Shown piece by piece: positions 5,969-38,332 of a stretch of 54,176 bases of DNA. The DNA lies in IMG/VR virus record IMGVR_UViG_2563366830_000017, positions 1-54,176 of that record; one strand, written 5' to 3'. The notes under the pieces were generated by a model, which worked only from the letters and a program-made list of their open reading frames with translations, was not told the DNA's origin and did no database searches. Source of the stretch: a virus. Its lineage: Duplodnaviria; Heunggongvirae; Uroviricota; Caudoviricetes. How positions within the stretch are numbered: position 1 is the stretch's first letter; each line of letters begins with the position of its first letter. The position numbers were made by a program, and so were the translations under genes.

Positions 5969-6160
5969 TCATACCTGGTCTCTCTCATCTGCTTCTGCTT
6001 TCGCCACCATCATTTCCAGCTTTTGTGAAAGGGATGCGGCTAACGTATGAAATTCTTCGTCTGTTTCTACTGATATTGGCACAAACCTGACTCCAATTTG
6101 AGCGAGGCTATGTGCCATCTCGATACTCGTTCTTAACTCAACGGGAGATGCTTTGTGCAT
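5969..6160 (-). CDS. Hypothetical small protein (63 aa)
   Basis: ORF in operon context upstream of exo. Confidence 0.35.
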   Translation of the reverse strand: MHKASPVELRTSIEMAHSLAQIGVRFVPISVETDEEFHTLAASLSQKLEMMVAKAEADERDQV

Positions 6161-26753: not shown

Positions 26754-27029
26754 ATGTCGATGTACACAACCGCCCAGCTGCTGGCGGCAAATGAGCAGAA
26801 ATTTAAGTTTGATCCGCTGTTTCTGCGTCTCTTTTTCCGTGAGAGCTATCCCTTCACTACGGAGAAAGTCTATCTCTCACAAATTCCTGGACTGGTAAAC
26901 ATGGCGCTGTACGTTTCGCCGATTGTTTCCGGTGAGGTTATCCGTTCCCGTGGCGGCTCCACCTCTGAATTTACGCCGGGATATGTCAAACCCAAGCACT
27001 TAGCATGGCTTTCTGAGGCTTTCGTGTAG
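26754..27029 (+). pseudogene. E: Major capsid protein E, 5-prime fragment (82 lambda-like codons then 10 foreign codons and stop) created by insertion
   Basis: MSMYTTAQLLAANEQKFKFDPLFLRLFFRESYPFTT...GYVKPKH matches lambda E; then LAWLSEAFV-stop. Confidence 0.9.
26989..26998. repeat. Left copy of 10-bp direct repeat AACCCAAGCA at island junction
   Basis: Identical 10-mer at 38323..38332; lambda-like E sequence ends here. Confidence 0.75.
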
Positions 27030-27110
27030 TTGCTGGTTTTTACACTTAATCTTTTGATAATAAAGAATAAGTTTATCTGGCGCTTTCACTGAATTTTCCT
27101 CGTTATCTGT

Positions 27111-27146
27111 GTGTTGCAATCATCTCTGTATTGCAGCTTGTATTGC
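27111..27146 (+). repeat. Candidate integrase arm-type sites: three copies of TGT(A/G)TTGC(A) near left end
   Basis: GTGTTGCA, TGTATTGCA, TGTATTGC read in sequence; two more TGTATTGCA copies at 38227..38247. Confidence 0.45.
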
Positions 27147-27161
27147 TTTTTGGGGCTAAAA

Positions 27162-28397
27162 ATGGCTGGCGAGAACAAACTGAGCGACAAAGCGCTTAAA
27201 GGATATCTGGGGAAACCCAGAGAAAAGCAGATCACCATTGCTGATGGAAAGGGGCTTTCTATTCGTGTGAGTACTAAAGGGGCTGTGAGCTTTGTTTTCT
27301 TCTACAGGTTAGCAGGTGGCCGGGCTGCTCCGGTCTGGCTAACGTTGGGTAAATATCCTGATATGTCACTCAAACAGGCAAGGGAAAAGCGCGACGAGTG
27401 CCGTGGTTGGTTGGCTGACAAACGTGATCCGCGTATCCAGATTAAGATTCAGGCTGAAGAACGCTTAAAGCCGGTCACAGTGGAGGATGCACTAAATTAC
27501 TGGTATGAAAACTACTGTAAGGTGCGTCGTAAAACTCATGCTGTAACGCTTGGCAGATTTCGAAAGCATATCTTTCCCTATATCGGTCATTTGCCCGTAA
27601 ATGACACTCACCTATATGAATGGCTGGACTGTTTTGACCGAATTAAACGTAATGCACCAGTTATGGCGGCGTATGTTTTTTCTGACACTAAATTAGCTCT
27701 TCGTTTTTGTCGGGTACGCCAGTACGCGACGTGTGATGCTTTAAAGGATTTGCGCATGAGTGATGTGGGGCAGATTGCAGGTAAGCGGGATCGGGTTCTG
27801 GATGAAGCCGAACTCGGCCAGCTCTGGAAGGCAATTTTTGTCGAGCCTGATTTAAAACTAATGTCTGAATACACGCGAAAAATGTTTGTGCTTTGTACAG
27901 TATTTGGATGTCGAATGAGTGAAGCCCGATTATCAGAATGGAGCGAATGGGATCTCGAAAGTTGGGTTTGGACTGTGCCAAAAGATCACTCAAAAACTGG
28001 TGTTGAAATCGTCAGACCAGTACCTGAAATTCTACGACAGTGGGTAACGGATGTTCACGAAGAGACAAAACATACTGGTTATGTGCTGGGAAGTCTGCGA
28101 ATTAGAGAAAGCGTAAGCAAGATTGGGGGGAAAATCGGTAAACGTTTGGGCCATGAAAAACAATGGTCACTACACGACCTTAGAAGAACGCTATCTACTC
28201 ATCTAAGTGATCTCGGTGTTGAATTTTATGTAGTAGAACAACTGTTAGGCCATGCGCTACCTGGCGTGGCAGGTGTTTACAACCGGAGTAAGTTTATGGC
28301 TAAAAAACTGGATGCTCTGGAACTCTGGACTACATATCTCAATAGCATCGCAGCTGCTGATTCAAAAGTGACAATCCTCAAACAAAAGGCTGGTTAG
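27162..28397 (+). CDS. Tyrosine integrase, P4-type (island-encoded)
   Basis: 411 aa from ATG; C-terminal HxLRxT...HxxxxxxxxY-like catalytic region (HELR...HDLRRT...LGHA...VY); adjacent to left junction. Confidence 0.85.
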   Translation: MAGENKLSDKALKGYLGKPREKQITIADGKGLSIRVSTKGAVSFVFFYRLAGGRAAPVWLTLGKYPDMSLKQAREKRDECRGWLADKRDPRIQIKIQAEERLKPVTVEDALNYWYENYCKVRRKTHAVTLGRFRKHIFPYIGHLPVNDTHLYEWLDCFDRIKRNAPVMAAYVFSDTKLALRFCRVRQYATCDALKDLRMSDVGQIAGKRDRVLDEAELGQLWKAIFVEPDLKLMSEYTRKMFVLCTVFGCRMSEARLSEWSEWDLESWVWTVPKDHSKTGVEIVRPVPEILRQWVTDVHEETKHTGYVLGSLRIRESVSKIGGKIGKRLGHEKQWSLHDLRRTLSTHLSDLGVEFYVVEQLLGHALPGVAGVYNRSKFMAKKLDALELWTTYLNSIAAADSKVTILKQKAG

Positions 28398-28398
28398 C

Positions 28399-28629
28399 AT
28401 GAAAAAAATGGCAATTGTTGATAAAAAGGGTCTGGAGTACATTCCTAACATTGACCGAATGATCCGTGAGAAAGAATGTCGGGAGCTAACTACTCTTGCG
28501 AACAGCACACGCTGGAAGCTGGAGAAGGAAGGAAAATTTCCTAAGCGGATCAAGATTGGTTCCACTGCTGTTGCATATCGTCTTTCAGAAGTGCAGGCAT
28601 GGATTCGAGGTGAGTGGGAAACAACTTAA
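28399..28629 (+). CDS. AlpA-family HTH regulator/excisionase-like protein
   Basis: 76 aa; placed immediately after integrase as in P4-like and PICI elements. Confidence 0.7.
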   Translation: MKKMAIVDKKGLEYIPNIDRMIREKECRELTTLANSTRWKLEKEGKFPKRIKIGSTAVAYRLSEVQAWIRGEWETT

Positions 28630-28636
28630 CTATTAG

Positions 28637-29467
28637 GTGGGCATTGTGGCTATATTTCATTATACAGATCTTTTTGGTTTGAAAGGTATATTAGACTCTA
28701 ATTCTTTATGGGCTACAAACATATATTTCTTAAATGATAAAGAGGAGTCTAACCATGGATGTGAATGCTTTCGAAATACAATTAAAATAGTTGATGACAA
28801 TATCATTCCAAAAGATAAGAAAACTATTTTGCTCAAGTCTCTTGACATGTATGAGAAAGGGAGGTTACAAAAAGAAAAAGGGATTGATAAACATGTTTAT
28901 AGCATCTCTTTTTGTAAGGAAAACGATAAGTTAAGTCAGTGGAGAGGTTACGGAAATAAACAGGGTGTTTGCATTGAGTTTGATGCGGATGAACTTGTGA
29001 GCTTTTCTCAAAATATTTATTTAAATTGTGTTGCACATGATGTTATATATTCAAATAATAACGATATTACTAAGATGAGTAAGGAGTTGGGAGAGTTTTT
29101 TTCTTGTAATGGTATTAACATTAAAGAAATGAATGATCATTTTGTAACAATGGTCTCTACGTATCAATTTATATCTAAATACATCCCATTTTTTAAACAT
29201 CCTAGTTTTATCGAAGAGAATGAATTTAGATTGGTATTTACTCCGTGGATGCAAATGCCAGATGTGCACTTCAGAATAAATAATAATGGAATCATCCCTT
29301 ATATCATCATTGATAATAAAGATAATAGAAAGTTACCAATTAAAAGCATTACAATTGGCCCGACAAACGATTATGATTTCATTGAGGCTGGTATAAAAAT
29401 GTTCTTGGATTCAAGAGGATTTAGTTCTGTGGAAATTAAATCCTCATCAATTCCATTCAGGGGGTAA
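28637..29467 (+). CDS. DUF2971-like protein (AT-rich cargo gene)
   Basis: N-terminal FHYTDLFGLKGILDSNSLWATNIYFLNDKEE resembles the DUF2971 signature as I recall it; GTG start; low GC. Confidence 0.55.
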   Translation: MGIVAIFHYTDLFGLKGILDSNSLWATNIYFLNDKEESNHGCECFRNTIKIVDDNIIPKDKKTILLKSLDMYEKGRLQKEKGIDKHVYSISFCKENDKLSQWRGYGNKQGVCIEFDADELVSFSQNIYLNCVAHDVIYSNNNDITKMSKELGEFFSCNGINIKEMNDHFVTMVSTYQFISKYIPFFKHPSFIEENEFRLVFTPWMQMPDVHFRINNNGIIPYIIIDNKDNRKLPIKSITIGPTNDYDFIEAGIKMFLDSRGFSSVEIKSSSIPFRG

Positions 29468-29598
29468 GGATTAACACTTTTAATCTGTGATATTATAAAA
29501 ATGGTGGATAAAGGCGACCAGAATTGGTCGCCAATGTGAGTATATAGTTAGCCTTAATCAGAATACGAGGTTATCGCCTGATAGGCAATGTGAACAGT

Positions 29599-29955
29599 TC
29601 AATATTTAGGTGGTTCAACAAGAGCGTTTATCATTGCTCTCAAATTATCGCGAACACTTATCCAAGTCTGTTCTGCTCGTTCTAACTCATCAGTGTACAA
29701 CTTTAATGTTTTATCTATGCCATATGTGGCTATTAAATTTATAGCTTCTTGTAATTTTTCAGGATTATTCCTTCTTGGGGGAGTGAATATACCACGGATT
29801 TTTCCGGTAATTAAAGCTTTACGGTGTCTACATAGAATACCTTTACTTCCTGCTGGACAATTACAAGTCATGATTAGCGAGCCAGAATCGTTTGATACAG
29901 TGACTATGTATACATCCAAACTACTGCTACTTGTTGCGAAGAATTCGTATTTCAT
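29599..29955 (-). CDS. SWIM-type zinc-finger protein (CxCx8CxH), AT-rich cargo gene
   Basis: Motif CNCPAGSKGILCRH seen in translation; convergent with DUF2971-like gene. Confidence 0.5.
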   Translation of the reverse strand: MKYEFFATSSSSLDVYIVTVSNDSGSLIMTCNCPAGSKGILCRHRKALITGKIRGIFTPPRRNNPEKLQEAINLIATYGIDKTLKLYTDELERAEQTWISVRDNLRAMINALVEPPKY

Positions 29956-29982
29956 GTGTTAGCTCCTTGACTTCAATTATTC

Positions 29983-30114
29983 TTATCCTTTTGGTTCAAT
30001 ACCGCGCCGTAGCAGCTCTTTGCGCCCTAATTCTTTAAGCCAGTTGGCTAGGCTTATGCCGTCGCTCTGCGCTTCTTTGTCGAATTGCTCTTTTAGCTCT
30101 GGAGAAATTCGCAT
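29983..30114 (-). CDS. Small basic protein, possible ribbon-helix-helix repressor (43 aa from ATG)
   Basis: MRISPELKEQFDKEAQSDGISLANWLKELGRKELLRRGIEPKG; divergent from downstream plus-strand operon. Confidence 0.4.
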   Translation of the reverse strand: MRISPELKEQFDKEAQSDGISLANWLKELGRKELLRRGIEPKG

Positions 30115-30313
30115 TCTGAATTGTGGAGATTGCCCATCACCCTTAGGACTTTTATCGCGTTTGATCGTTGACAAGTGACCACCTATTGAATTAGCCTTTT
30201 CATTGTTAGGTGGCCACCTTAACACGGGGGCACTTAAAAAAGCAAAGCCCGAAGGTGCTGGGAACACCAACGGGCTTCTAACCACCAACGATAGCAACAG
30301 TATCGAGGTAGCT

Positions 30314-30517
30314 ATGAGAAATCATACCACACACCCGCAAGGGCGGGACCCGCACAACCTGAATAAATACATCTGGCGTTTTATCGCCTTGAGTACGGCA
30401 CAACCGCGCATGATTACCATCGAGGCCATCAGCGAACAGGAAGCCCGCCAGCAATCCCCAACTGGCTGCGTGATGGTATTCGCCGCCCGTATTCGTCAGG
30501 AGGTGTGCCGTGCTTAA
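30314..30517 (+). CDS. Hypothetical small protein, first gene of island early operon
   Basis: ORF track 30203..30517; ATG at 30314 chosen. Confidence 0.4.
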   Translation: MRNHTTHPQGRDPHNLNKYIWRFIALSTAQPRMITIEAISEQEARQQSPTGCVMVFAARIRQEVCRA

Positions 30518-30695
30518 AACCTTCCGTGTATTTGCCCGAGCTGTTAACCCACTGGGCCACACAATTGGTATCACTCAGAACGTGAAGGCTGTTAATGTTC
30601 AGACGGCTATTGCTGCGGTGAGAAGCGAATCATCAGAATATGGCTTATCACAAGTCATTATTTCAGCAGTGTATGAATTAAAAGAGGTGCATTAA
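30510..30695 (+). CDS. Hypothetical small protein
   Basis: 61-aa ORF, overlapping starts/stops in operon. Confidence 0.45.
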   Translation: MLKTFRVFARAVNPLGHTIGITQNVKAVNVQTAIAAVRSESSEYGLSQVIISAVYELKEVH

Positions 30696-30886
30696 TGCAG
30701 GAAATCACATTACACGAAGCCGCTGAACGTGCGCACCAGACAGAAATTATTTGCCGCCTTCTTGAGGTATACCCGAACAAAATTACAGATGCTGATATAT
30801 CCGCGCTGGCGAGCCTACTGGCGCGCCTTTCGGGAAGTGTCGCTAGTTTCCTGATTGAGGAAGAAAGTAAGCTGGTGGGGGATTAA
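30695..30886 (+). CDS. Hypothetical small protein
   Basis: 63-aa ORF, translationally coupled in operon. Confidence 0.45.
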   Translation: MQEITLHEAAERAHQTEIICRLLEVYPNKITDADISALASLLARLSGSVASFLIEEESKLVGD

Positions 30887-31108
30887 ATGAATACAGAACG
30901 GGAAGTCTTTTTTAAATTGTTAGCATGTGCAGAAAGTCCATTAACTTTAAATAATTCAGCAAAAGCAATATTAAATATGTGGCTTGATTGCATAAATGAC
31001 AATGAAGATGCAAATATTGCTTATGGCCTGTTGTCACTTATTGATGAATCAGCAGAAAAACTCAATGACGCAATAAATAGTGCCCTGCTATCAAATAAGT
31101 CGAGTTAA
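30887..31108 (+). CDS. Hypothetical small protein
   Basis: 73-aa ORF in operon. Confidence 0.45.
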   Translation: MNTEREVFFKLLACAESPLTLNNSAKAILNMWLDCINDNEDANIAYGLLSLIDESAEKLNDAINSALLSNKSS

Positions 31109-31125
31109 GTCGAGGAATAAATAAT

Positions 31126-31425
31126 ATGGAAATGAAAAATTCTGGCTTTATTGCCAGCGGCCCCGCTCGGCCTGAATTTATGAACGGCGATATTTACCGC
31201 GATAAATACGGCGGCACGGTAACGATTAAAGGCGTGGCAGAACGGCGCATCACTTACCGCCGTGAGGGGTATAGCTATGACTGCGTGATGCCTGTTTATC
31301 AGTTCCGGCGTGATTTTTCCCTGGTATATGCCGCACCCCGCAGTAAGCCCATCAGCAGGGAAAAAGCGCGGGGAAACATCCAGAAAATGAAAAGCATGAT
31401 TAACGCATTCAGGGGCAAAAAATGA
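31126..31425 (+). CDS. Hypothetical protein (99 aa)
   Basis: ORF immediately upstream of and overlapping primase start. Confidence 0.5.
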   Translation: MEMKNSGFIASGPARPEFMNGDIYRDKYGGTVTIKGVAERRITYRREGYSYDCVMPVYQFRRDFSLVYAAPRSKPISREKARGNIQKMKSMINAFRGKK

Positions 31426-33173
31426 AACTGGCACCGAACTTAAAAAAACAGCCACGCGACAGACTGACAGAGGTAATCATCTTTGCAGGTAGTGATGCGT
31501 GGAGCCATGCGAAAGAGTGGCGGGAATGGGCGGGTAAACATATTGCCGCCGACGATGTGCCGCCTGTCGTGCTGGCTGATGAGCAACTGAAAAATATCAC
31601 CGATTACCGGATCATTGATGAAGATCGTCAGTGTGTGCGTGTTTACCGCGCAGGACATATCACAGAGCACAGCATGACGCAGATTGTTACGTTACTGGCT
31701 GTGGCTGGAGTGAAGACCGTACACGAATACGCGGGGATTACTGACACCAGCCCAGTGGATTTATCCGAGCAGTTGCCGCGACTCAAAGAGGAATGCGAGC
31801 GTGGGGAAAGTCTGGTGCTTAATCTTCCGACGAAGCAAAAGGCGCAACTTTCACAGATGGCAGACAGTGAACGTGCACAACTACTTGCCGATCGCTTTGA
31901 TGGTGTGTGTGTTCATGCAGAAAGTGAAATCGTCCACGTATGGCGCGGCGGGGTATGGTGTCCGGTCAGCACAATGGAGCTGAGCCGCGAAATGGTGGCG
32001 ATCTATTCAGAGCACAGGGCCACGTTCAGCAAACGTGTAATCAATAACGCCGTGGAAGCGTTAAAAGTTATTGCCGACCCCATGGGGGAGCCGTCCGGTG
32101 ATTTGCTACCGTTCACTAATGGTGTGCTTAACCTGAAAACGGGGGAATTTTCTCCGCACTCGCCGGAGCACTGGAGCACCACGCACAATGGCATTGAGTA
32201 CACGCCACCAGTAGCAGGGGAAAACATCCGCGATAATGCGCCAAATTTCCATAAATGGCTTGAACATGCCGCAAGAAAAGACCCGCGCAAGATGATGCGT
32301 ATATGTGCCGCGTTATACATGATTATGGCGAACCGCTACGACTGGCAGATGTTCATTGAGGCCACCGGAGACGGGGGAAGCGGTAAGAGTACATTTACCC
32401 ATATTGCCACCCTGCTTGCTGGCAAACAGAACACCGTAAGCGCGGAGATGACATCACTCGATGATGCAGGAGGGCGCGCGCAGGTTGTCGGGAGTCGTCT
32501 TATCGTCCTTGCCGATCAGCCGAAATATACGGGGGAAGGCACGGGCATCAAGAAAATCACGGGAGGCGATCCCGTTGAAATTAACCCGAAATATGAGAAG
32601 CGATTCACGACGATAATAAGGGCGGTGGTACTGGCAACCAATAACGACCCGATGATCTTTACCGAACGGGCCGGAGGTGTGTCACGCCGTCGGGTGATTT
32701 TCCGGTTCGACAACATTGTAAGGGAGGACGAAAAAGACAAGGAATTACCGGAAAAGATAGCGGCAGAAATCCCCGTAATTATCCGCCGCTTGCTGGCTAA
32801 TTTTGCTGACCCTGAAAAGGCACGGGCTTTATTACTGGAACAGCGTGACGGTGATGAAGCTCTGGCAATAAAGCAGCAAACGGATCCGGTTGTTGAGCTT
32901 TGCGCGGCGCTGGAGTTTCTGGAGGAAGCTCGTGGGCTAATGATGGGCGGTGGTGGTGACACCGTGAAGTACACGACCAGAAACAGCCTTTACCGTGTCT
33001 ATATGGCCTTCATGGCATACACAGGAAAGGGGAAATGTTTGAGCGTGAATGAGTTCGGAAAGGCTATGAGGTCAGCGGCGAAAGTTTACGGATATGAATA
33101 TATTACGCGAAAAGTTAAGGGAGTCACGCAGACCAACGCAACGACTACTGATGATTGCGATGCGTTTTTATAA
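31422..33173 (+). CDS. Primase/replication protein (P4-alpha C-terminal-like, with Walker A GDGGSGKST)
   Basis: 583 aa; P-loop GDGGSGKS seen; followed by iteron array. Confidence 0.8.
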   Translation: MKLAPNLKKQPRDRLTEVIIFAGSDAWSHAKEWREWAGKHIAADDVPPVVLADEQLKNITDYRIIDEDRQCVRVYRAGHITEHSMTQIVTLLAVAGVKTVHEYAGITDTSPVDLSEQLPRLKEECERGESLVLNLPTKQKAQLSQMADSERAQLLADRFDGVCVHAESEIVHVWRGGVWCPVSTMELSREMVAIYSEHRATFSKRVINNAVEALKVIADPMGEPSGDLLPFTNGVLNLKTGEFSPHSPEHWSTTHNGIEYTPPVAGENIRDNAPNFHKWLEHAARKDPRKMMRICAALYMIMANRYDWQMFIEATGDGGSGKSTFTHIATLLAGKQNTVSAEMTSLDDAGGRAQVVGSRLIVLADQPKYTGEGTGIKKITGGDPVEINPKYEKRFTTIIRAVVLATNNDPMIFTERAGGVSRRRVIFRFDNIVREDEKDKELPEKIAAEIPVIIRRLLANFADPEKARALLLEQRDGDEALAIKQQTDPVVELCAALEFLEEARGLMMGGGGDTVKYTTRNSLYRVYMAFMAYTGKGKCLSVNEFGKAMRSAAKVYGYEYITRKVKGVTQTNATTTDDCDAFL

Positions 33174-33179
33174 AAAATG

Positions 33180-33430
33180 GCAATGGTTATCTACCTTGTC
33201 TACCTGACTGAAAGAAAATACTTTTATTTCAATGTATTAATGCAGGTAGATAACTATTTTTCACTGTCTACCTGTTATCTACCTTATCTACCCATTTTTG
33301 TAGACAGGTAAGGAGACGGGTAGAGATGAGGTAGACAGCTATTTGGGGCTGTCTACCTCCCTGAAACCCGCGCCATTACTGGCCTGATAACTAATCAGGT
33401 AGACAAGGTAGACAAGGTGGTGGTGCACAA
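33180..33430. repeat. ori: Island replication-origin iterons (GGTAGACA / TGTCTACC family, both orientations)
   Basis: At least 10 copies of (A)GGTAGAC(A) or its complement within 250 bp directly after primase gene. Confidence 0.75.
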
Positions 33431-33462
33431 AAAACTTTTTAAACGAGGGGGTAAAAATAAAA

Positions 33463-33720
33463 ATGCACACATCAGGAAAACTGAACAAACATATAAAGCC
33501 ACATTACCGCGCCCTTGATATGGCTGAACACTGGCTAAGGGTGGCGATTAAGGCAATAGACCGCAACGCCGGGGAAGGATACGCGAAAGCACATCCCGAA
33601 CTGATAAGCGCATTCATGACAACGGCGGCTGCAAACTTTGCCACGCTGACCGAACGGGAGATTGCTGAAGCGGAGGAAGTGACAACAATCAATATTAAGT
33701 CCGGAGAGCAGGCAGCATGA
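33463..33720 (+). CDS. Hypothetical protein (85 aa)
   Basis: ORF overlapping ssb start. Confidence 0.45.
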   Translation: MHTSGKLNKHIKPHYRALDMAEHWLRVAIKAIDRNAGEGYAKAHPELISAFMTTAAANFATLTEREIAEAEEVTTINIKSGEQAA

Positions 33721-34166
33721 CGGCGCAAATATCAGTTTACGGGCGGTTGGTGGACGACCCGCAGACAAAACAGACCAGCAAGGGCACCCCCATGACGCTG
33801 GCGCGTATGGCGGTATCACTGCCCTGCAGTCAGTCGGATGACGGTCTGGCGACGTTGTGGTTATCTGTCCTGGCGTTTGGCAGACAAGCCGACGCGCTGG
33901 CAAAGCATCACAAAGGCGAACTCCTGAGCGTGGCGGGTAACATGCAGATGAGCCAGTGGACTGGACAGAACGGCGAAACGCGGCAGGGCTGGCAGGTTAT
34001 CGCAGACAGCGTAATCAGTGCGCGATCGGTGCGACCGGGCGGCAAAAAAGGCCAACAGGGGCAGGCTACTGACGCACTGAACAGAGCAAAACAACAGGCA
34101 GATCAGCAAGGAAGCCAGCCACCAGAGGGAGATAATGAGCAATGGGGAGATGATATCCCGTTTTAA
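33717..34166 (+). CDS. ssb: Single-stranded DNA-binding protein
   Basis: OB-fold-like N-region, Gln/Gly-rich linker and acidic C-terminal tail ending DDIPF. Confidence 0.85.
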   Translation: MTAQISVYGRLVDDPQTKQTSKGTPMTLARMAVSLPCSQSDDGLATLWLSVLAFGRQADALAKHHKGELLSVAGNMQMSQWTGQNGETRQGWQVIADSVISARSVRPGGKKGQQGQATDALNRAKQQADQQGSQPPEGDNEQWGDDIPF

Positions 34167-34382
34167 ATATTGCCAATAAAAAAAGCCGGAAAAAATAAAT
34201 TTTCCGGCATGCTACATAAATCCCGACCAAAGGGAGTGAAGATATTAACACTAATTGTCCGCACTGAAGTTGTCACCCCAAAACTTTATACAACATTGCA
34301 CTCGGTTGCATGTGTTCGCATGACAAATATCGGTGATAGCATATATCCACAATTATTTTTAATGAATGCAAAGAGGATGCGT

Positions 34383-35423
34383 ATGGTTGATTTATATTCG
34401 CCTACTCAGCTTGTACAGGTAGTTAATGCTGTAGATGTACAAAAACAACTAAATGCGTTATTTACCAGTTTGTTTTTTACTCGCTCGGTAATGTTTGAAT
34501 CGCGCGATATTATTCTTGATACAATCGACGATCCAAATATCCCAATTGCAGCGTTTTGTTCTCCTATGGTGGGTAGTAAAGTTTCACGTGACGAAGGGTA
34601 CGAATCAAAAACAATTCGTCCAGGCTATATGAAGCCGAAAAGCAGCATTGATCCAAATAAGTTAGCTGTGCGCCCTGCTGGTGTGTCACCTGAGCAATAC
34701 AATGCTTTTGGGGCGCGTAATATTAAAGTTAAACAGGCGATTGTAAATCAGGCTAAAGCTATTCGTGCACGTATTGAATGGCTTGCTGTTCAGGCAATCA
34801 CAACGGGGAAAAATATCATTGAGGGCGATGGTATTGAACGTTATGAGCTGGACTGGAATATAAAACCACAAAATATCATCACTCAGTCTGGCGGTACTGA
34901 GTGGTCAGGTAAGGATAAAGAAACTTTTGATCCAAATGATGATATTGAGAGCTACGCAGAATTTAGTGAGGGCGTCACTAATATCATCATTATGGGTGGT
35001 AATGTATGGAAGAAATACCGTTCATTCAGAGCGATAAAAGAGGCTTTGGATACCCGTCGTGGTTCTAATTCCGAACTGGAAACGGCCCTTAAAGACCTTG
35101 GTGATTCGGTGAGTTTTAAAGGGTATATGGGCGATGTTGCGATTGTTGTTTACAGCGGGCGTTATACCGACGAGGACGGAACAGAAAAACATTTCCTTGA
35201 TCCTGATTTGATGGTGCTTGGCAATACGGCTCTTCAGGGGATTGTCGCCTATGGCGGTATTCAGGATCCGGAGCTAATCCGAATGGGGCTGACTAAAGCC
35301 GAACTTGCACCGAAAAACTATATTGTGCCTGGTGATCCGGCTATTGAATATGTGCAGACACATTCAGCACCACAGCCAATACCGGCCCGCATCAATCGTT
35401 TTGTTACCGTTCGCATTGGCTAA
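34383..35423 (+). CDS. Island-encoded major capsid protein, diverged homolog of lambda E
   Basis: Blocks shared with prophage E: NIITQSGGTEWSGKDKETFDPNDDIESYA, LDTRRGSNSELETALKDLG, YMGDVAIVVYSGRY, MVLGNT; ORF track 34170 start is upstream. Confidence 0.85.
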   Translation: MVDLYSPTQLVQVVNAVDVQKQLNALFTSLFFTRSVMFESRDIILDTIDDPNIPIAAFCSPMVGSKVSRDEGYESKTIRPGYMKPKSSIDPNKLAVRPAGVSPEQYNAFGARNIKVKQAIVNQAKAIRARIEWLAVQAITTGKNIIEGDGIERYELDWNIKPQNIITQSGGTEWSGKDKETFDPNDDIESYAEFSEGVTNIIIMGGNVWKKYRSFRAIKEALDTRRGSNSELETALKDLGDSVSFKGYMGDVAIVVYSGRYTDEDGTEKHFLDPDLMVLGNTALQGIVAYGGIQDPELIRMGLTKAELAPKNYIVPGDPAIEYVQTHSAPQPIPARINRFVTVRIG

Positions 35424-35432
35424 GGGGGAGCA

Positions 35433-35774
35433 ATGGCTACTCATTACACTGAACTCATGGCTGGCACTGAAGCACTGGTGACTACGCTGGGGATATTTTC
35501 AGCTAATAAAGGGGTAATTCCTGCATTTACGCCACTGATGCAGGAAGATGCAACAGGTGCACTGGTGGTATGGGATGGTTCGAGCGTAGGTAAAGCGGTT
35601 TATGTTTCCGCTGTACAAATCGACACCGCGAAAAAAACACAGGCTCAGGTCTATAAGACAGGTGTCTTAAATGTTGATGCTCTGAACTGGCCTGAGTCTG
35701 TTAAAGAACTGTCAGTAAAGATTGCAGCGTTTGTTGGCTCAGGTATTTCTGTTCAGCCGCTGGCTCGTGTGTAA
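35433..35774 (+). CDS. Island-encoded decoration protein, diverged homolog of lambda D
   Basis: THYTEL, FTPLMQEDATGALVVWDGSSVGKAV, YKTGVLNVDALNWPE, AAFVGSGISV align with prophage D motifs. Confidence 0.8.
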   Translation: MATHYTELMAGTEALVTTLGIFSANKGVIPAFTPLMQEDATGALVVWDGSSVGKAVYVSAVQIDTAKKTQAQVYKTGVLNVDALNWPESVKELSVKIAAFVGSGISVQPLARV

Positions 35775-35785
35775 AGGGGGATACA

Positions 35786-36169
35786 ATGCAGAATGATTAC
35801 AATGACCTTAAGCCAATTGCCGAAATGATGTACCCGAATCCAGCTGTAGAGGAATTAAAAGCTATCGCTGACAAAATGTGTTTAAGCGAGCGCCTTGTTG
35901 ATATGAATCAGGTGATGGAAATTACAACCCTGAGTCGTCGTACACTGCTAAACCTTGAGGCTAGTGGAGAGTTCCCGGAGCGTGTGCAGGTTACGGAAGG
36001 GCGTAAGGCCTGGTATTTAAGTGAAGTGATCGACTGGATAAATAATATTCCTCGCGCTTCTGAATATTGCCGCGTACCTGTCCCAAAAAAGCCAGATGCG
36101 GCGCTATGCCTCAAGATTGAGCGTGTACGCCGCAATGCACGGGATGGTCGCTATAAGCTGATTGGTTGA
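35786..36169 (+). CDS. HTH protein (AlpA/MerR-like C-terminal half) immediately upstream of island cos
   Basis: 127 aa; segment MNQVMEITTLSRRTLLNLEASGEFPERVQVTEGRKAWYLSEVIDWI looks like AlpA-type HTH. Confidence 0.55.
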   Translation: MQNDYNDLKPIAEMMYPNPAVEELKAIADKMCLSERLVDMNQVMEITTLSRRTLLNLEASGEFPERVQVTEGRKAWYLSEVIDWINNIPRASEYCRVPVPKKPDAALCLKIERVRRNARDGRYKLIG

Positions 36170-36194
36170 TGAAATTAGGGCCCGCTCTGGCTGG

Positions 36195-36400
36195 CGGGTC
36201 CTTTCCGGTGATCCAGAACGTTACGGGGCGTCAGGCGCGCAGATTCTTGCTATTTATGACAATTTTCTGCGATTTGCCGTTTCCGTTCTTCTTCCTTGTA
36301 ACTTATTGTTTTTACTAGAAATACCCTCTAAAAAGAAAGGAAATGACAGGTGCTGAAAACAGGCTTTTGGGTCTCCGTCATTTCCTTTCTCATTTTTATC
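36195..36400 (+). other. cos: Island cos-like site, same orientation as prophage cos
   Basis: GGGTCCTTTCCGGTGATCC...ACGTTACGGGGCG...CGCG...GCTATTTATGA...AAAAAGAAAGGAAATGACAGGTGCTGAAAAC aligns block-by-block with 20591..20800. Confidence 0.8.
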
Positions 36401-36652
36401 TAAAAGTAAGCATCGAGGCCACCCCAAATGCTTATAGAGGTTATTGTGTCACTATGCGTACTGTTCAGGATTTAAAGTAGCAAGACATCTAGTTGCTTGC
36501 AGTTTTGGCGAATGATGTGAGGTTCTCTATAACAGATAATGTAACAAGTTACTGATATATTCTGTTATGGTTGACTTTAAATTTTGTTGCTCCTTCAATG
36601 AATTATTGAGGGGTAAAAATTAGGCGTGATAAGAATCGATCACGCCTATTGT

Positions 36653-37969
36653 TTATCTTGAAGAAATTTTAGGCAGGCTTTTTAAAAATAAATCTTTATT
36701 TCTACTTGCATCAGTTAAAAGTGTTAGGAATATTTTATCTGTAGGAGTGCATGTGCTCTTGTTTAACAGTAATTCACCAAGTTTCTGTAATCGAGAGAAT
36801 TGCCCATCCTCTTGGATTCTGTGACGAAGTGTACTATCATTTTTAATAACATCAACAAATGCAGAAACCATATTAATATCAAAGTGTTCAAACATTTCCA
36901 ATATTAAAGGTGCAGCCCCATTTGAATAAAAATTCTTCCTTCCATACTGATAGCTGAAACCACGATGGCCAACATAAGTTTTTGTAATGGCTGAAACAAA
37001 TTCAACAATATTATCTTCAGGGACGAAACTCGAGAATGGTAATAATTGGGTTACGATTTTTTCCTCTTCTGACCAATTATCTAAAGACTCGGTGAGTTTA
37101 TTAATGAGAGGCTCAATAATAACTTTTCGGGATGCAGGGCTAATATACATCAGTCCATCTACCAATAGTATGAATTGTTGTGCCTTCTCTATCTTATTGT
37201 TGTTTCCTGAAACTAAATACTTGTCAAATTGTTGGCCGACTTTACGTCGGTCGTCTTTTGAAAGTAATGTCCATAAAATAGGTGCGCAAAATTCAATGTT
37301 GTTTCTGAGTTCACTTGATATATTGGATGAGCAGTATGTGCCAAAAAAACGAGAGGATAATTCACTGATATAAATTGCAGGTAGATCTGAAAAGGCTTGC
37401 TTAACTGCCAGACTATTTTTATTAAATGTTGCCGAATCCATTTCTGAAAGATATGTAGTTATATCTATGATGGCTGGTGGAAACTCTTTAGAAAGAACGT
37501 ATTTATTACAATCATTAATCAGGTTCACTACTTTGATTAAATCAGGGTCGCTACTTTGTGGATGTCCACCAAATAGATTCCTGGTTTCTCTAGCTTGTTG
37601 TAATAGTTTCTGACCTTCTCGATCGATAACTCCTATTTTAAATGCTCCATCTATTAAATCAAAGTCGCTCACATAATCCTGAAAATCTTCATACGTTTTA
37701 ATTTCTTTTTTTTGTTTACACTCTTTGTTGAATAGATCTAGGCTACGATGAATTATCTTTTGACGTAAATCATCAACTACAGCATTCCAGTAAGCAGTGA
37801 TGGCACTTCTATAACCTTTTACAGGAAGAACTCTTATTGCTTCTGAAATATATGGGCAGTCAACTACATCATGCCTCACAGTTGAGAGCGCAGTTTGTAA
37901 CAATGTAACTTCTGTAGAGTCTAGTGGAGTTGGCTGCACTAAATGAGAACTTATCTCTGTACCCTTCAT
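36653..37969 (-). CDS. Hypothetical 438-aa protein, AT-rich cargo gene between island cos and right junction
   Basis: Low GC; contains R-x5-H motif (RNLFGGH); no family confidently assigned. Confidence 0.6.
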   Translation of the reverse strand: MKGTEISSHLVQPTPLDSTEVTLLQTALSTVRHDVVDCPYISEAIRVLPVKGYRSAITAYWNAVVDDLRQKIIHRSLDLFNKECKQKKEIKTYEDFQDYVSDFDLIDGAFKIGVIDREGQKLLQQARETRNLFGGHPQSSDPDLIKVVNLINDCNKYVLSKEFPPAIIDITTYLSEMDSATFNKNSLAVKQAFSDLPAIYISELSSRFFGTYCSSNISSELRNNIEFCAPILWTLLSKDDRRKVGQQFDKYLVSGNNNKIEKAQQFILLVDGLMYISPASRKVIIEPLINKLTESLDNWSEEEKIVTQLLPFSSFVPEDNIVEFVSAITKTYVGHRGFSYQYGRKNFYSNGAAPLILEMFEHFDINMVSAFVDVIKNDSTLRHRIQEDGQFSRLQKLGELLLNKSTCTPTDKIFLTLLTDASRNKDLFLKSLPKISSR

Positions 37970-38322
37970 TTCAGGATTTTCCTATTCTTTTCCATTTTTC
38001 TACTCTATTGAATTTGAAAAAGATATCAAGTTCGTTCTTGCCAGTTTTAAGTGGAAAATTTGATGTTACCTTATTGAGATAAGGCAGTTCTCTATAACCT
38101 ATTGTTATTAATTATTTTTATTTTTTTCCAATTCAGATGTTTAGGGCTAAGAAGTTAAGTGAGAGTTCACAGCAAAACTGCTTCTAGTTCCTCACCGAGG
38201 AGCAAAAGGTTAAGACAGCGTACTTTGTATTGCACAATGTATTGCAGAACCTTCTTTCGAAAGCTACAACAATCAATTTTATATTGAAAATTCAATCATA
38301 TCCTTTCGATATTGACTCATAT

Positions 38323-38332
38323 AACCCAAGCA
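38323..38332. repeat. Right copy of 10-bp direct repeat AACCCAAGCA at island junction
   Basis: Identical to 26989..26998; lambda-like E sequence resumes here. Confidence 0.75.

Follow-up and report, generated by a model that had tools for sequence, protein, structure and literature searches.

The AT-rich locus at positions 28,637–29,955 of the window (the whole 54,176-nucleotide stretch of viral DNA analyzed here) is, in the reading we think probable, the 5′ accessory hot spot of a helper-embedded PICI, in which two independent cargo genes occupy adjacent sub-slots and the first of them, ORF-A, is a DUF2971/DarT-like defence candidate. By analogy with known systems, ORF-A is best read as an Aristaios-like, DarT-like single-gene defence candidate, with an antiphage phenotype and an expression timing that are predicted. 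A first-pass annotation of the sequence had placed two convergent open reading frames here, and both are present:

28646–29467, + strand: ORF-A, DUF2971 protein of 273 aa, cargo of sub-slot 1a
29599–29955, − strand: ORF-B, stand-alone SWIM zinc-finger protein of 118 aa, sub-slot 1b

The locus lies in a capsid-gene satellite with variable cargo slots

The surrounding island (approximately 26999–38332) is a helper-embedded PICI that interrupts a lambdoid prophage's major capsid gene and belongs to the published type "11capE" (PMC10111431). PGAP coordinates of the island genes were carried over from an identical locus (L001).

26754–27029: 5′ fragment of the prophage major capsid gene (PGAP annotates the island flanks as partial major capsid pseudogenes)
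26989–26998, no strand: attL identity block AACCCAAGCA, left junction of the satellite within the prophage major capsid gene
27162–28397, + strand: satellite tyrosine integrase (Pfam Arm-DNA-bind_3 and Phage_integrase)
28399–28629, + strand: AlpA-family regulator/excisionase (Pfam Phage_AlpA, E 3e-15)
30314–36169, + strand: satellite backbone (Pfam and PHROG matches, PGAP annotation of L001), including an Icd-like gene, small ORFs, DUF4222, SSB and a second AlpA-like HTH gene
31422–33173, + strand: D5-type primase of the backbone
34383–35423, + strand: the satellite's own major capsid gene
35433–35774, + strand: decoration gene of the satellite
36170–38332: 3′-terminal variable slot, also AT-rich (GC 0.355), ending with attR at 38323–38332
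36653–37969, − strand: 438-aa hypothetical gene in the 3′ slot (phrog_27609 the sole match)

The 10-bp attL repeat has an exact second copy at 38323–38332 (the attR block), and alpA is the final constant gene ahead of sub-slot 1a. GC content was 0.307 for ORF-A and 0.361 for ORF-B, against 0.471 for the island backbone and 0.57 for the flanking prophage. The two genes are therefore more AT-rich than the rest of the island and lie between int/alpA (27162–28629) and the regulatory and replication genes, both as first described. In the 3′ slot, Pfam and PADLOC searches with the 438-aa gene gave zero matches; relatives carry a DUF2971 gene or a TIR gene there. An Rfam scan of the whole island at a permissive threshold revealed no C4/isrK-type immunity RNA and nothing else.

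The int-alpA segment was found at a nucleotide identity of at least 96% in 175–179 E. coli genomes, this DUF2971 gene in only 36. Alternative occupants of the slot were a CAP12/Pycsar-type TIR protein (PADLOC PDC-S35, 7e-67), putAbiC and proteins of 467, 265, 273 and 178 aa, among which PADLOC matched nothing beyond TIR/PDC-S35 and weak AbiC/AbiP. The SWIM position was also variable: among relatives with the same RHH gene (described below), some have putAbiC there, others a membrane protein, and others no gene at all. Because near-identical islands carry a TIR protein or other genes after alpA, these variable contents support the idea of a hot spot. They also agree with the earlier view that the two genes are cargo that the satellite does not need, as near-identical islands hold TIR/PDC-S35, putAbiC or other genes in their place. 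The position had further been described as one where satellites commonly carry defence cargo; consistent with this, PMC11364771 treats the PICI 5′ end as an immune hot spot, both the 5′ and 3′ ends being known immune regions (Fillol-Salom et al., 2022, as cited in PMC11364771).

ORF-A is a conserved DUF2971 protein

The open frame of ORF-A extends from 28637 to 29467 on the + strand, and its likely true start is the GTG at 28646, which is preceded by the ribosome-binding site AGGTGGG and matches the 273-aa protein of PGAP. This start lies 16 nt past alpA in the same orientation, and a crude promoter scan of the gap found no promoter-like site. ORF-A belongs to Pfam DUF2971 (PF11185), with a score of 46.2 bits (cut-off 22, E 1.2e-11) and the complete 89-position model aligned to residues 101–199. 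The first-pass annotation had named the same family from an N-terminal segment (FHYTD...NDKEE). The family assignment stands and the segment is conserved, as full-length homologues never vary at T10, N33, D34 and E37 and rarely do at H8 and Y9, although the Pfam model covers residues 101–199 instead. Across 62 homologues, the invariant or nearly invariant residues were H8, Y9, T10, N33, D34, E37, W102, R103, Y105, E193, E194, E196 and R198, and PF11185 was carried by all but one of the 120 homologues listed for ORF-A.

A dN/dS of 0.11–0.40 indicated purifying selection on ORF-A; some copies are broken up by IS elements. One homologue (39.7% identity) lies on an IncI plasmid beside an Abi_C protein, and others occur in many non-satellite genomes (for DUF2971 outside satellites, see also PMC12522546). 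NCBIfam matched neither ORF-A nor ORF-B. PADLOC (2023) did not recognize ORF-A: its match to PDC-S31 was local and below threshold (1.3e-4, 19.9 bits, residues 70–146 against profile positions 93–165 of 259), short of membership, and a literature search for 'PDC-S31' found nothing relevant. Of the profile searches proposed as a check on the first annotation, Pfam returned DUF2971 and SWIM, and PADLOC sub-threshold local matches only.

The predicted structure of ORF-A resembles DarT

The AF2 model of ORF-A was confident (pLDDT 91.7), and its nearest solved structures were the DarT DNA ADP-ribosyltransferases (PDB codes: 7omv, 7yk3, 7omu, and 8baq). The model contains a predicted ADP-ribosyltransferase (ART) core fold, onto which putative catalytic residues were assigned by conservation and secondary structure. 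Motif I is represented by H8 (nearly invariant) and T10 (invariant) in the predicted strand 5–11, and Tox-ART-HYD1 gave a weak match to residues 7–25. Candidates for motif II are Y88 (majority consensus, strand 88–93) and the invariant Y105 and Y138. For motif III, the invariant E194 and E196 and the nearly invariant E193 stand directly before and at strand 196–203; this E194-x-E196 is in line with the ExE motif published for DUF2971 (PMC12522546). The same study predicted that DUF2971 is an H-Y-E-clade ART resembling DarT and AbiGi (PMC12522546). When a HMMER profile of the ORF-A homologues was searched against PDB sequences, no relative was found, the only matches being chance ones to GABA receptors on 'FLNDK'. 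On the strength of the model, we conclude that ORF-A is an ART-fold protein whose fold is nearest to DarT, with predicted enzymatic activity and a presumed target.

ORF-B ends the operon of a constant RHH gene

29514–29533: hairpin GGCGACCA-gaat-TGGTCGCC in the 131-bp spacer of the convergent ORF-A and ORF-B, read from the sequence
29983–30174, − strand: small ribbon-helix-helix (RHH) gene of 63 aa, Arc/HicB/YlcI-YnfO-like, with a TTG start and AGGTGG upstream
30175–30313: control region from which the RHH gene and the Icd-like/replication operon diverge, likewise read from the sequence

ORF-B belongs to Pfam SWIM (PF04434; 24.1 bits, cut-off 19.6, E 2.6e-5) and matched phrog_13130 at 1e-82. 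The CxCx8CxH zinc finger recognized previously was confirmed, its ligands C31, C33, C42 and H44 being invariant in two alignments, one of them of 48 family members. The protein is laid out as three strands, the CxCx8CxH motif and a long C-terminal helix; its AF2 model was of low confidence (pLDDT 66.8), and a Foldseek search with this model gave nothing usable. Compared with a 95.8%-identical allele, the SWIM gene showed 15 synonymous and 0 non-synonymous differences, indicating purifying selection. PADLOC PDC-S62 matched ORF-B locally and below threshold (4.9e-5, 20.1 bits, the SWIM region of a 566-position model), which does not amount to membership.

The RHH gene matched Pfam HicB (1.4e-3) and the Arc-like repressor phrog_228 (4.5e-6), and its orthologues in locus L028 match HicB and RHH_1; its start codon was chosen by inspecting the sequence alongside L002 and L028. 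This gene heads a leftward operon that the SWIM gene ends. The SWIM gene follows 27 nt downstream on the same strand (27–30 nt across loci), and the two were adjacent in every enterobacterial satellite locus examined. From this arrangement, the SWIM gene is predicted to share a transcript with the constant RHH gene of the satellite and not with ORF-A. The hairpin at 29514–29533, followed by a T-rich run on the minus strand, is a probable terminator of the RHH-SWIM transcript; a scan for consensus terminators did not call it. The control region contains a palindrome (GGTGGCCACC, 30209–30218) and a hairpin at 30245–30277 that leads into a minus-strand T-run, and no Rfam family matches the region. 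The SWIM gene is probably expressed in the lysogen.

In lambdoid prophage contigs, homologues of the SWIM protein are encoded antisense, with a cII-like gene on one side and an O-like gene on the other, which supports SWIM as an accessory gene in its own right. Of the more diverse relatives, only a distant subgroup was located, and in a distant branch, found in at least four phyla, the gene stands in an operon directly behind ligA (NAD+-dependent DNA ligase). No match was obtained when genome contigs were scanned with a profile of the close SWIM alignment or when deposited phage genomes were searched by tblastn. A literature search on SWIM and anti-phage or satellite functions returned nothing relevant, and no characterized member of the small SWIM family was found. 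The SWIM domain is generally held to bind DNA or proteins, and ORF-B probably binds DNA or a protein of DNA transactions. It is conceivable, if distinctly unlikely, that the family comprises DNA-transaction factors captured repeatedly by temperate phages and satellites, acting on replication or ligation (e.g. as an exclusion or replication-control factor). NAD+ is used by LigA as well as by the adjacent DarT-like enzyme, and on that account SWIM might even modulate ORF-A where the two co-occur, a still more speculative extension.

ORF-A and SWIM are independent cargo, and other roles are less probable

The first-pass annotation had joined the two genes into one candidate anti-phage system and proposed that conservation of the pair be followed across genomes. 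This did not bear it out: each gene occurs without the other, the two are on opposite strands in separate operons, and among complete E. coli genomes SWIM was present in 53 and this DUF2971 gene in 36, with varied neighbours. SWIM was found with four unrelated occupants of sub-slot 1a or with none; its neighbour was a Bro-N protein, a protein of 273 aa, an unrelated one of 265 aa or alpA itself. SWIM without DUF2971 was seen in L002, L004, L005, L006, L007, L043 and L047, and DUF2971 without SWIM in L008/L009, L022, L023/L024, L025, L051 and L052. In satellites of four lineages (K. aerogenes, E. ludwigii, E. kobei and K. pneumoniae), DUF2971 proteins of 33–60% identity follow int-alpA with SWIM absent, and DUF2971 without SWIM is also found on plasmids. 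A single two-gene system, for example with SWIM as sensor or modulator of an ART effector, would account for the adjacent, convergent and AT-rich arrangement and for the finding that SWIM accompanies this DUF2971 gene in each of its 36 E. coli genomes. However, these 36 share a single block of 96–100% identity, and the co-occurrence is therefore linkage by descent; PADLOC also matched no known two-gene system. The arrangement recurs in a deeply diverged Buttiauxella satellite (60% and 32% identity for DUF2971 and SWIM, respectively), and some functional interplay may therefore exist. The pattern expected of an obligate system, independent co-occurrence with neither gene alone, was not observed. 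ORF-A and SWIM are thus two independent cargo genes, not a pair, and we regard a joint system as improbable.

Other roles can be proposed for each gene. ORF-A may be a life-cycle or interference factor, an ART made with int-alpA on helper induction that would modify host or helper components to the satellite's benefit, in the manner of T4 Alt/Mod. The proximity of ORF-A to alpA, the missing promoter-like site and its co-orientation with the interrupted helper late operon, for which read-through activation has been proposed (PMC10111431), fit such a role. So does the persistence of DUF2971 as the first gene after alpA across satellites, with int/alpA equally diverged (53–61% vs 59–60%). However, approximately 80% of near-identical islands carry TIR, Abi or other genes instead of ORF-A, which is therefore dispensable for the satellite cycle; homologues reside on conjugative plasmids beside Abi_C and in many non-satellite genomes (PMC12522546), and the sole tested DUF2971 member is a defence gene (PMC11381338). 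We consider this role unlikely. Somewhat less unlikely is that SWIM belongs to the satellite's own regulatory or replication control (e.g. as an RHH co-factor or a modulator of replication initiation) and is neither cargo nor defence. It always lies 27–30 nt downstream of RHH and divergent from the Icd-like/primase operon, its lambdoid prophage homologues mark the boundary of the immunity and replication modules, the ligA-linked branch in several phyla points to DNA transactions, and purifying selection is strong. Yet only approximately 46 of approximately 179 capE-type islands carry SWIM, close relatives that keep RHH have putAbiC, a membrane protein or nothing at its position, and it is as AT-rich as other cargo. 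Finally, the DarT toxins as nearest structural relatives and the nearby RHH/HicB-like gene might suggest that ORF-A is the toxin of an addiction module stabilizing the satellite, with RHH or SWIM as antitoxin. This is very improbable: no DarG-like macrodomain protein is adjacent, ORF-A homologues exist without SWIM, and the RHH gene neither adjoins ORF-A nor shares its transcript. RHH as a dedicated antitoxin of ORF-A was rejected because the RHH gene is constant over all cargo variants.

A proposed mode of action and its significance

In the preferred reading of ORF-A as a single-gene defence candidate, the protein would be expressed or activated on phage infection or on induction of the satellite or helper. 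It would then transfer ADP-ribose from NAD+ to a target that is either nucleic acid (as for DarT) or protein, and this modification would stall phage transcription or replication, an abortive-infection defence as with Aristaios. As no macrodomain antitoxin lies nearby, control would have to operate through expression (the alpA promoter or helper late read-through) or through autoinhibition by two large helical inserts. Without a promoter of its own and co-oriented with the helper late operon, ORF-A may be expressed only on induction, which would suit a role in satellite or helper manipulation as well as defence. ORF-B would be a cargo gene riding on the RHH repressor operon and not a partner of ORF-A.

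An antiphage member of DUF2971, the hot spots at PICI ends and 11capE are all known already; ORF-A adds a member to that family, and neither gene overturns current understanding. If active, ORF-A would be the first enterobacterial, satellite-borne DUF2971 (Aristaios-type) ADP-ribosyltransferase defence and would give a manageable E. coli model in which to seek the target and trigger of this family, which spans thousands of species. The two sub-slots of the 5′ hot spot, with their differing expression logic (alpA transcript versus RHH regulator transcript), are useful for defence-gene mining; the unannotated slot proteins (265, 273, 467, 178 and 438 aa) are further candidates, and the small SWIM proteins could be followed up separately at little cost.

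Comparison with known systems

The island matches 11capE in its insertion in a lambda-E-like major capsid gene (E:Phage_cap_E site group) of a lambdoid prophage, in the 10-bp att identity block described for that type, and in the order int-alpA, dynamic zone, primase/SSB and own capsid gene (PMC10111431). The ORF-A/ORF-B locus falls in the dynamic or 'Bro' zone, which holds mostly Bro-network proteins and immunity RNAs (PMC10111431), whereas the present island has no Rfam C4/isrK match. A search through the main text of that paper turned up neither SWIM nor any treatment of the zone's cargo or defence content.

As in other PICIs and in P4, variable AT-rich accessory genes adjoin int/alpA and also occupy the satellite's opposite end, with recognizable defence genes (TIR/PDC-S35, putAbiC) there in close relatives. 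The 5′ hot spot here differs in comprising two opposite-strand sub-slots, post-alpA (1a) and post-RHH (1b). The P4 hot spots were reportedly described by Rousset et al. in 2022, and the SWIM zinc-finger domain, reportedly, by Makarova, Aravind and Koonin in 2002. ORF-B shares with PF04434 the CxCxnCxH zinc ligands following a small beta sheet, but it is a stand-alone type of approximately 115 aa with a C-terminal coiled helix, unfused to SNF2 helicases, transposases or kinases.

Although its predicted fold is nearest to DarT, ORF-A has no DarT/DUF4433 Pfam match, shares approximately 9–13% identity with DarT, and contains the two large helical inserts (residues ~34–77 and ~144–185), which are absent from DarT. 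Unlike in DarTG, no DarG macrodomain antitoxin is adjacent, the neighbours being alpA and the SWIM gene, and the absence of any macro-domain or DarT Pfam match at the locus argues against a DarTG system. The closer parallel is Aristaios, a single-gene, Abi-like DUF2971 antiphage system of the Lactococcus plasmid pUCCL641_199 that acts on phage transcription (PMC11381338; PMC13064643) and is the one validated antiphage member of the family and its sole tested one (PMC11381338). Both are single proteins of approximately 270–320 aa with DUF2971/PF11185 and a predicted ADP-ribosyltransferase fold, carried as mobile-element cargo without a partner gene. They differ in phylum and element (a lactococcal plasmid versus an enterobacterial helper-embedded PICI), and the likeness is drawn by Pfam family and single-gene architecture.

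An AT-rich cargo block in a satellite island

The DUF2971 gene (ORF-A) and the SWIM zinc-finger gene (ORF-B) lie convergently at the location given by the first-pass annotation, within an 11.3-kb island that interrupts a lambdoid helper prophage in its lambda-E-like major capsid gene and carries a 10-bp direct repeat at both junctions. The island begins with int, alpA, the two cargo genes and a small ribbon-helix-helix (RHH) gene; continues with an Icd-like gene, DUF4222, a D5-type primase, SSB, and major capsid and decoration genes of its own; and ends with a second AlpA-like gene and a second AT-rich slot containing a 438-aa hypothetical gene. It matches the helper-embedded PICI (HE-PICI) type '11capE', a satellite within the helper's major capsid gene, and the two cargo genes fall in the dynamic 'Bro zone' of this type (PMC10111431). 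Therefore, their genomic context is already known.

Features of the island (window coordinates, strand, description)
26989-26998 and 38323-38332: att identity block AACCCAAGCA, exact repeat
28646-29467, +: ORF-A, 273 aa, GTG start at 28646 behind the RBS AGGTGGG (28634-28640)
29514-29533: hairpin between the convergent ends of ORF-A and SWIM
29599-29955, -: ORF-B (SWIM), 118 aa
29983-30174, -: RHH gene, TTG start behind AGGTGG
30175-30313: divergent control region separating the RHH gene from the Icd-like gene
36170-38330: 3' slot, AT-rich (GC 0.355), with gene 36653-37969 (-) for the 438-aa protein, phrog_27609

ORF-A was initially listed from a GTG at 28637; 28646-29467 was adopted because an RBS precedes the GTG at 28646 and the PGAP annotation of an identical locus (L001) gives the identical 273-aa gene. 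The AT-richness claimed for both genes was evident, with a GC content of 0.307 for ORF-A and 0.361 for ORF-B versus 0.471 for the remaining island (prophage flanks, 0.57). Pfam DUF2971 matched ORF-A at 46.2 bits (cut-off 22), which upholds the family call, but the match covers residues 101-199 and not the N-terminal segment on which that call was based. The proposed CxCx8CxH finger of ORF-B was borne out by the Pfam SWIM match (24.1 bits; cut-off 19.6) and by the ligands C31-x-C33-x8-C42-x-H44, which do not vary in either of two alignments (8 and 48 relatives). The dN/dS of ORF-A was 0.11-0.40 against 96-97% identical alleles, and SWIM differed from a 95.8% identical allele by 15 synonymous and 0 non-synonymous changes; both genes are under purifying selection.

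In some E. coli genomes the cargo block is broken (NZ_OW968288/124/975, NZ_CM136148, NZ_CM192142, NZ_CP100930; hits H1-H3, H22, H23, H154): the SWIM 3' end is removed by IS1414, an IS3 element interrupts the DUF2971 gene near nt 230, or, in one copy, the DUF2971 gene is split. The control region (30175-30313) contains a perfect 10-bp palindrome, GGTGGCCACC, at 30209-30218 and a GC-rich hairpin (30245-30277) that lies upstream of the RHH gene with a minus-strand T-run after it. These elements may represent an operator and an attenuator or small RNA; the region matched no Rfam family.

DUF2971 and SWIM genes occur independently

The two genes had been proposed as one anti-phage system. Among 5,426 complete E. 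coli genomes, SWIM was found in 53 and an ORF-A-type DUF2971 gene in 36, all 36 of which also carry SWIM, as one block at 96-100% identity. In the SWIM-bearing islands inspected beyond that block (L numbers denote comparison loci from other genomes or contigs), the DUF2971 place holds another gene or none: an unrelated 265-aa protein, to which ORF-A showed no similarity by BLASTP (L002), a 273-aa protein (L005, L007), or a Bro-N protein (L004, an island in a terminase gene); in L006, an island whose integrase, site and replication protein all differ, alpA adjoins SWIM directly. DUF2971 homologues with 33-60% identity occupy the same first-after-alpA place in satellites that lie within prophage head genes of K. 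aerogenes (L008/L009), Buttiauxella (L010), E. ludwigii (L022), E. kobei (L023/L024, one extra gene in between) and K. pneumoniae (L025). Among these five lineages, SWIM accompanies the homologue in the Buttiauxella island only, and it is absent from the plasmid DUF2971 loci examined. This recurrence of DUF2971 after alpA across diverged helper-embedded satellites is new here.

On the plus strand, ORF-A starts 16 nt after alpA; on the minus strand, SWIM comes after the RHH gene. The latter arrangement, a co-oriented SWIM gene 27-30 nt downstream of RHH, recurs in each enterobacterial satellite examined and places ORF-A and SWIM in different transcription units. As SWIM and DUF2971 homologues each occur without the other across genomes and the transcription units are separate, the two-gene system was rejected.

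Satellites L008, L010, L022 and L025 (Klebsiella, Buttiauxella, Enterobacter) are inserted in other prophage head genes, around portal/protease/capsid, and carry near their 3' end a ClpP-protease/capsid fusion gene that seems homologous to the gene each of them disrupts. L009 (K. aerogenes CP142848.1, 10,541 bp; also H155) was deposited as a separate 10.5-kb 'plasmid' with int, alpA, a DUF2971 gene (59% identical), primase and protease-capsid fusion; the same assembly also has this related satellite integrated in the chromosome, and the 'plasmid' is probably its excised circular form.

The cargo hot spot has two sub-slots

int-alpA was found at a nucleotide identity of at least 96% in 175-179 genomes, only about a fifth of which carry ORF-A. 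Published work already covers the island type and the idea of a hot spot; its division into two sub-slots is new.

Occupants of the sub-slots seen among close relatives
Sub-slot 1a, after alpA, +: TIR protein (L026, L027), 467 aa (L029), 265 aa, 273 aa, Bro-N
Sub-slot 1b, after the constant RHH gene, -: SWIM, putAbiC (PF16872) protein (L028), 178-aa membrane protein (L003), empty

The TIR protein is of CAP12/Pycsar type (PADLOC PDC-S35, 7e-67). Immune systems are located at the 5' or 3' ends of PICIs (PMC11364771), which, together with the known defence genes in close relatives' slots, supports the suggestion that the locus is a cargo/defence position. The 3' slot is also variable. Its 438-aa protein matched phrog_27609 alone, with no Pfam, NCBIfam or PADLOC match, and is another defence candidate because relatives carry a DUF2971 or TIR gene there.

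Further hot-spot occupants are unassigned (L002 7216-8013, L005 2776-3597, L029 5027-6430, L003 8298-8834, L023 5207-5974). The 265-, 273-, 467- and 255-aa proteins of near-identical islands had no Pfam or PADLOC assignment, and the 178-aa protein gave weak transmembrane-like matches; all five are candidates for unknown defence genes.

ORF-A resembles ADP-ribosyltransferases

The AlphaFold2 model of ORF-A (62 homologues as input) was confident, with a pLDDT of 91.7 and a pTM of 0.88. In an independent Foldseek search the top six hits were DarT chains (probability 0.82-0.97; E 4e-3 to 3e-2), and Tpt1 came next. In the family alignment and the model, H8-Y9-T10 is conserved on the first strand and E193-E194-x-E196-x-R198 leads into strand 196-203; N33, D34, E37, W102, R103, Y105 and Y138 are invariant across the family. 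These positions fit an ADP-ribosyltransferase (ART). Since Pfam Tox-ART-HYD1 matched residues 7-25 weakly, the N-terminal motif noticed earlier is best read as ART motif I. Both observations agree with the bioinformatic placement of DUF2971 in the H-Y-E ART clade, as a DarT/AbiGi-like group with two large helical inserts (PMC12522546).

Relatives of ORF-A are common cargo of mobile elements: with a permissive limit of E <= 1, tblastn matched it to 608 plasmid records, 188 with at least 80% query coverage. An IncI plasmid copy adjoins an Abi_C protein and a DUF3800 gene, and a Streptococcus satellite carries a distant relative at its end.

SWIM belongs to a family of small proteins

The low-confidence SWIM model (pLDDT 66.8) showed three strands and the zinc knuckle, then a short helix and, at the C terminus, a long one, and a fold search with it returned nothing informative. 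A whole-library HMM search recovered 187 representatives, nearly all of 105-125 aa and matching end to end; they form a family of small stand-alone SWIM proteins, a new lead from the present analysis. Homologues with 35-43% identity (also phrog_13130) lie in lambdoid prophage contigs (L043 5001-5342, L047 5001-5342) antisense to the early operon, between a cII-like gene and an O-like replication initiator and in cI orientation; this position resembles that of lambda oop and is a typical one for accessory 'moron' genes with expression in the lysogen. Members of a distant branch (23-29% identity) are found directly downstream of ligA, the gene for NAD-dependent DNA ligase, on the same strand at 6 of 12 loci from at least four phyla (L030, L032, L033, L034, L035, L039; in most, the SWIM match is near 6001). 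The six loci come from Pontiellaceae, Desulfobacterota, Ignavibacteria and a Pseudomonadota MAG, and four of them have spacing from a 4-nt overlap to 51 nt. The preserved gene order suggests that this branch functions in DNA metabolism. Given the prophage and ligA contexts and the sub-slot 1b position, we read SWIM as an independent accessory gene that may act on DNA or a DNA-transaction protein; a role in the satellite's own regulation is a real alternative.

Discussion

We consider it moderately probable that the locus holds two independent cargo genes and that ORF-A is a defence candidate of the Aristaios-like or DarT-like kind. The likeliest mechanism is that ORF-A acts as a stand-alone NAD+-dependent ADP-ribosyltransferase that would modify nucleic acid, in the fashion of DarT, or protein, and so arrest transcription or replication of the phage. 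The locus has no macrodomain antitoxin and no promoter-like site was found between alpA and ORF-A, so expression probably limits its activity, whether driven from the alpA promoter or by helper late read-through as proposed for 11capE (PMC10111431); alternatively, the helical inserts may be autoinhibitory. Such restraint would also suit a less probable rival, that ORF-A works for the satellite at induction and not in defence of the resting lysogen, a reading that accords poorly with its dispensability (it is missing from about 80% of near-identical islands), with the TIR or Abi genes standing in for it in relatives, and with the occurrence of the family on plasmids.

Among known systems, DarT is structurally closest to ORF-A, and a likeness in action is predicted; ORF-A is set apart from DarTG by the lack of DarT sequence membership and of DarG. 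Aristaios, a 316-aa DUF2971 protein of a lactococcal plasmid, is experimentally a single-gene Abi-like antiphage system that disturbs phage transcription (PMC11381338, PMC13064643); it shares the Pfam family with ORF-A, a likeness at the family level.
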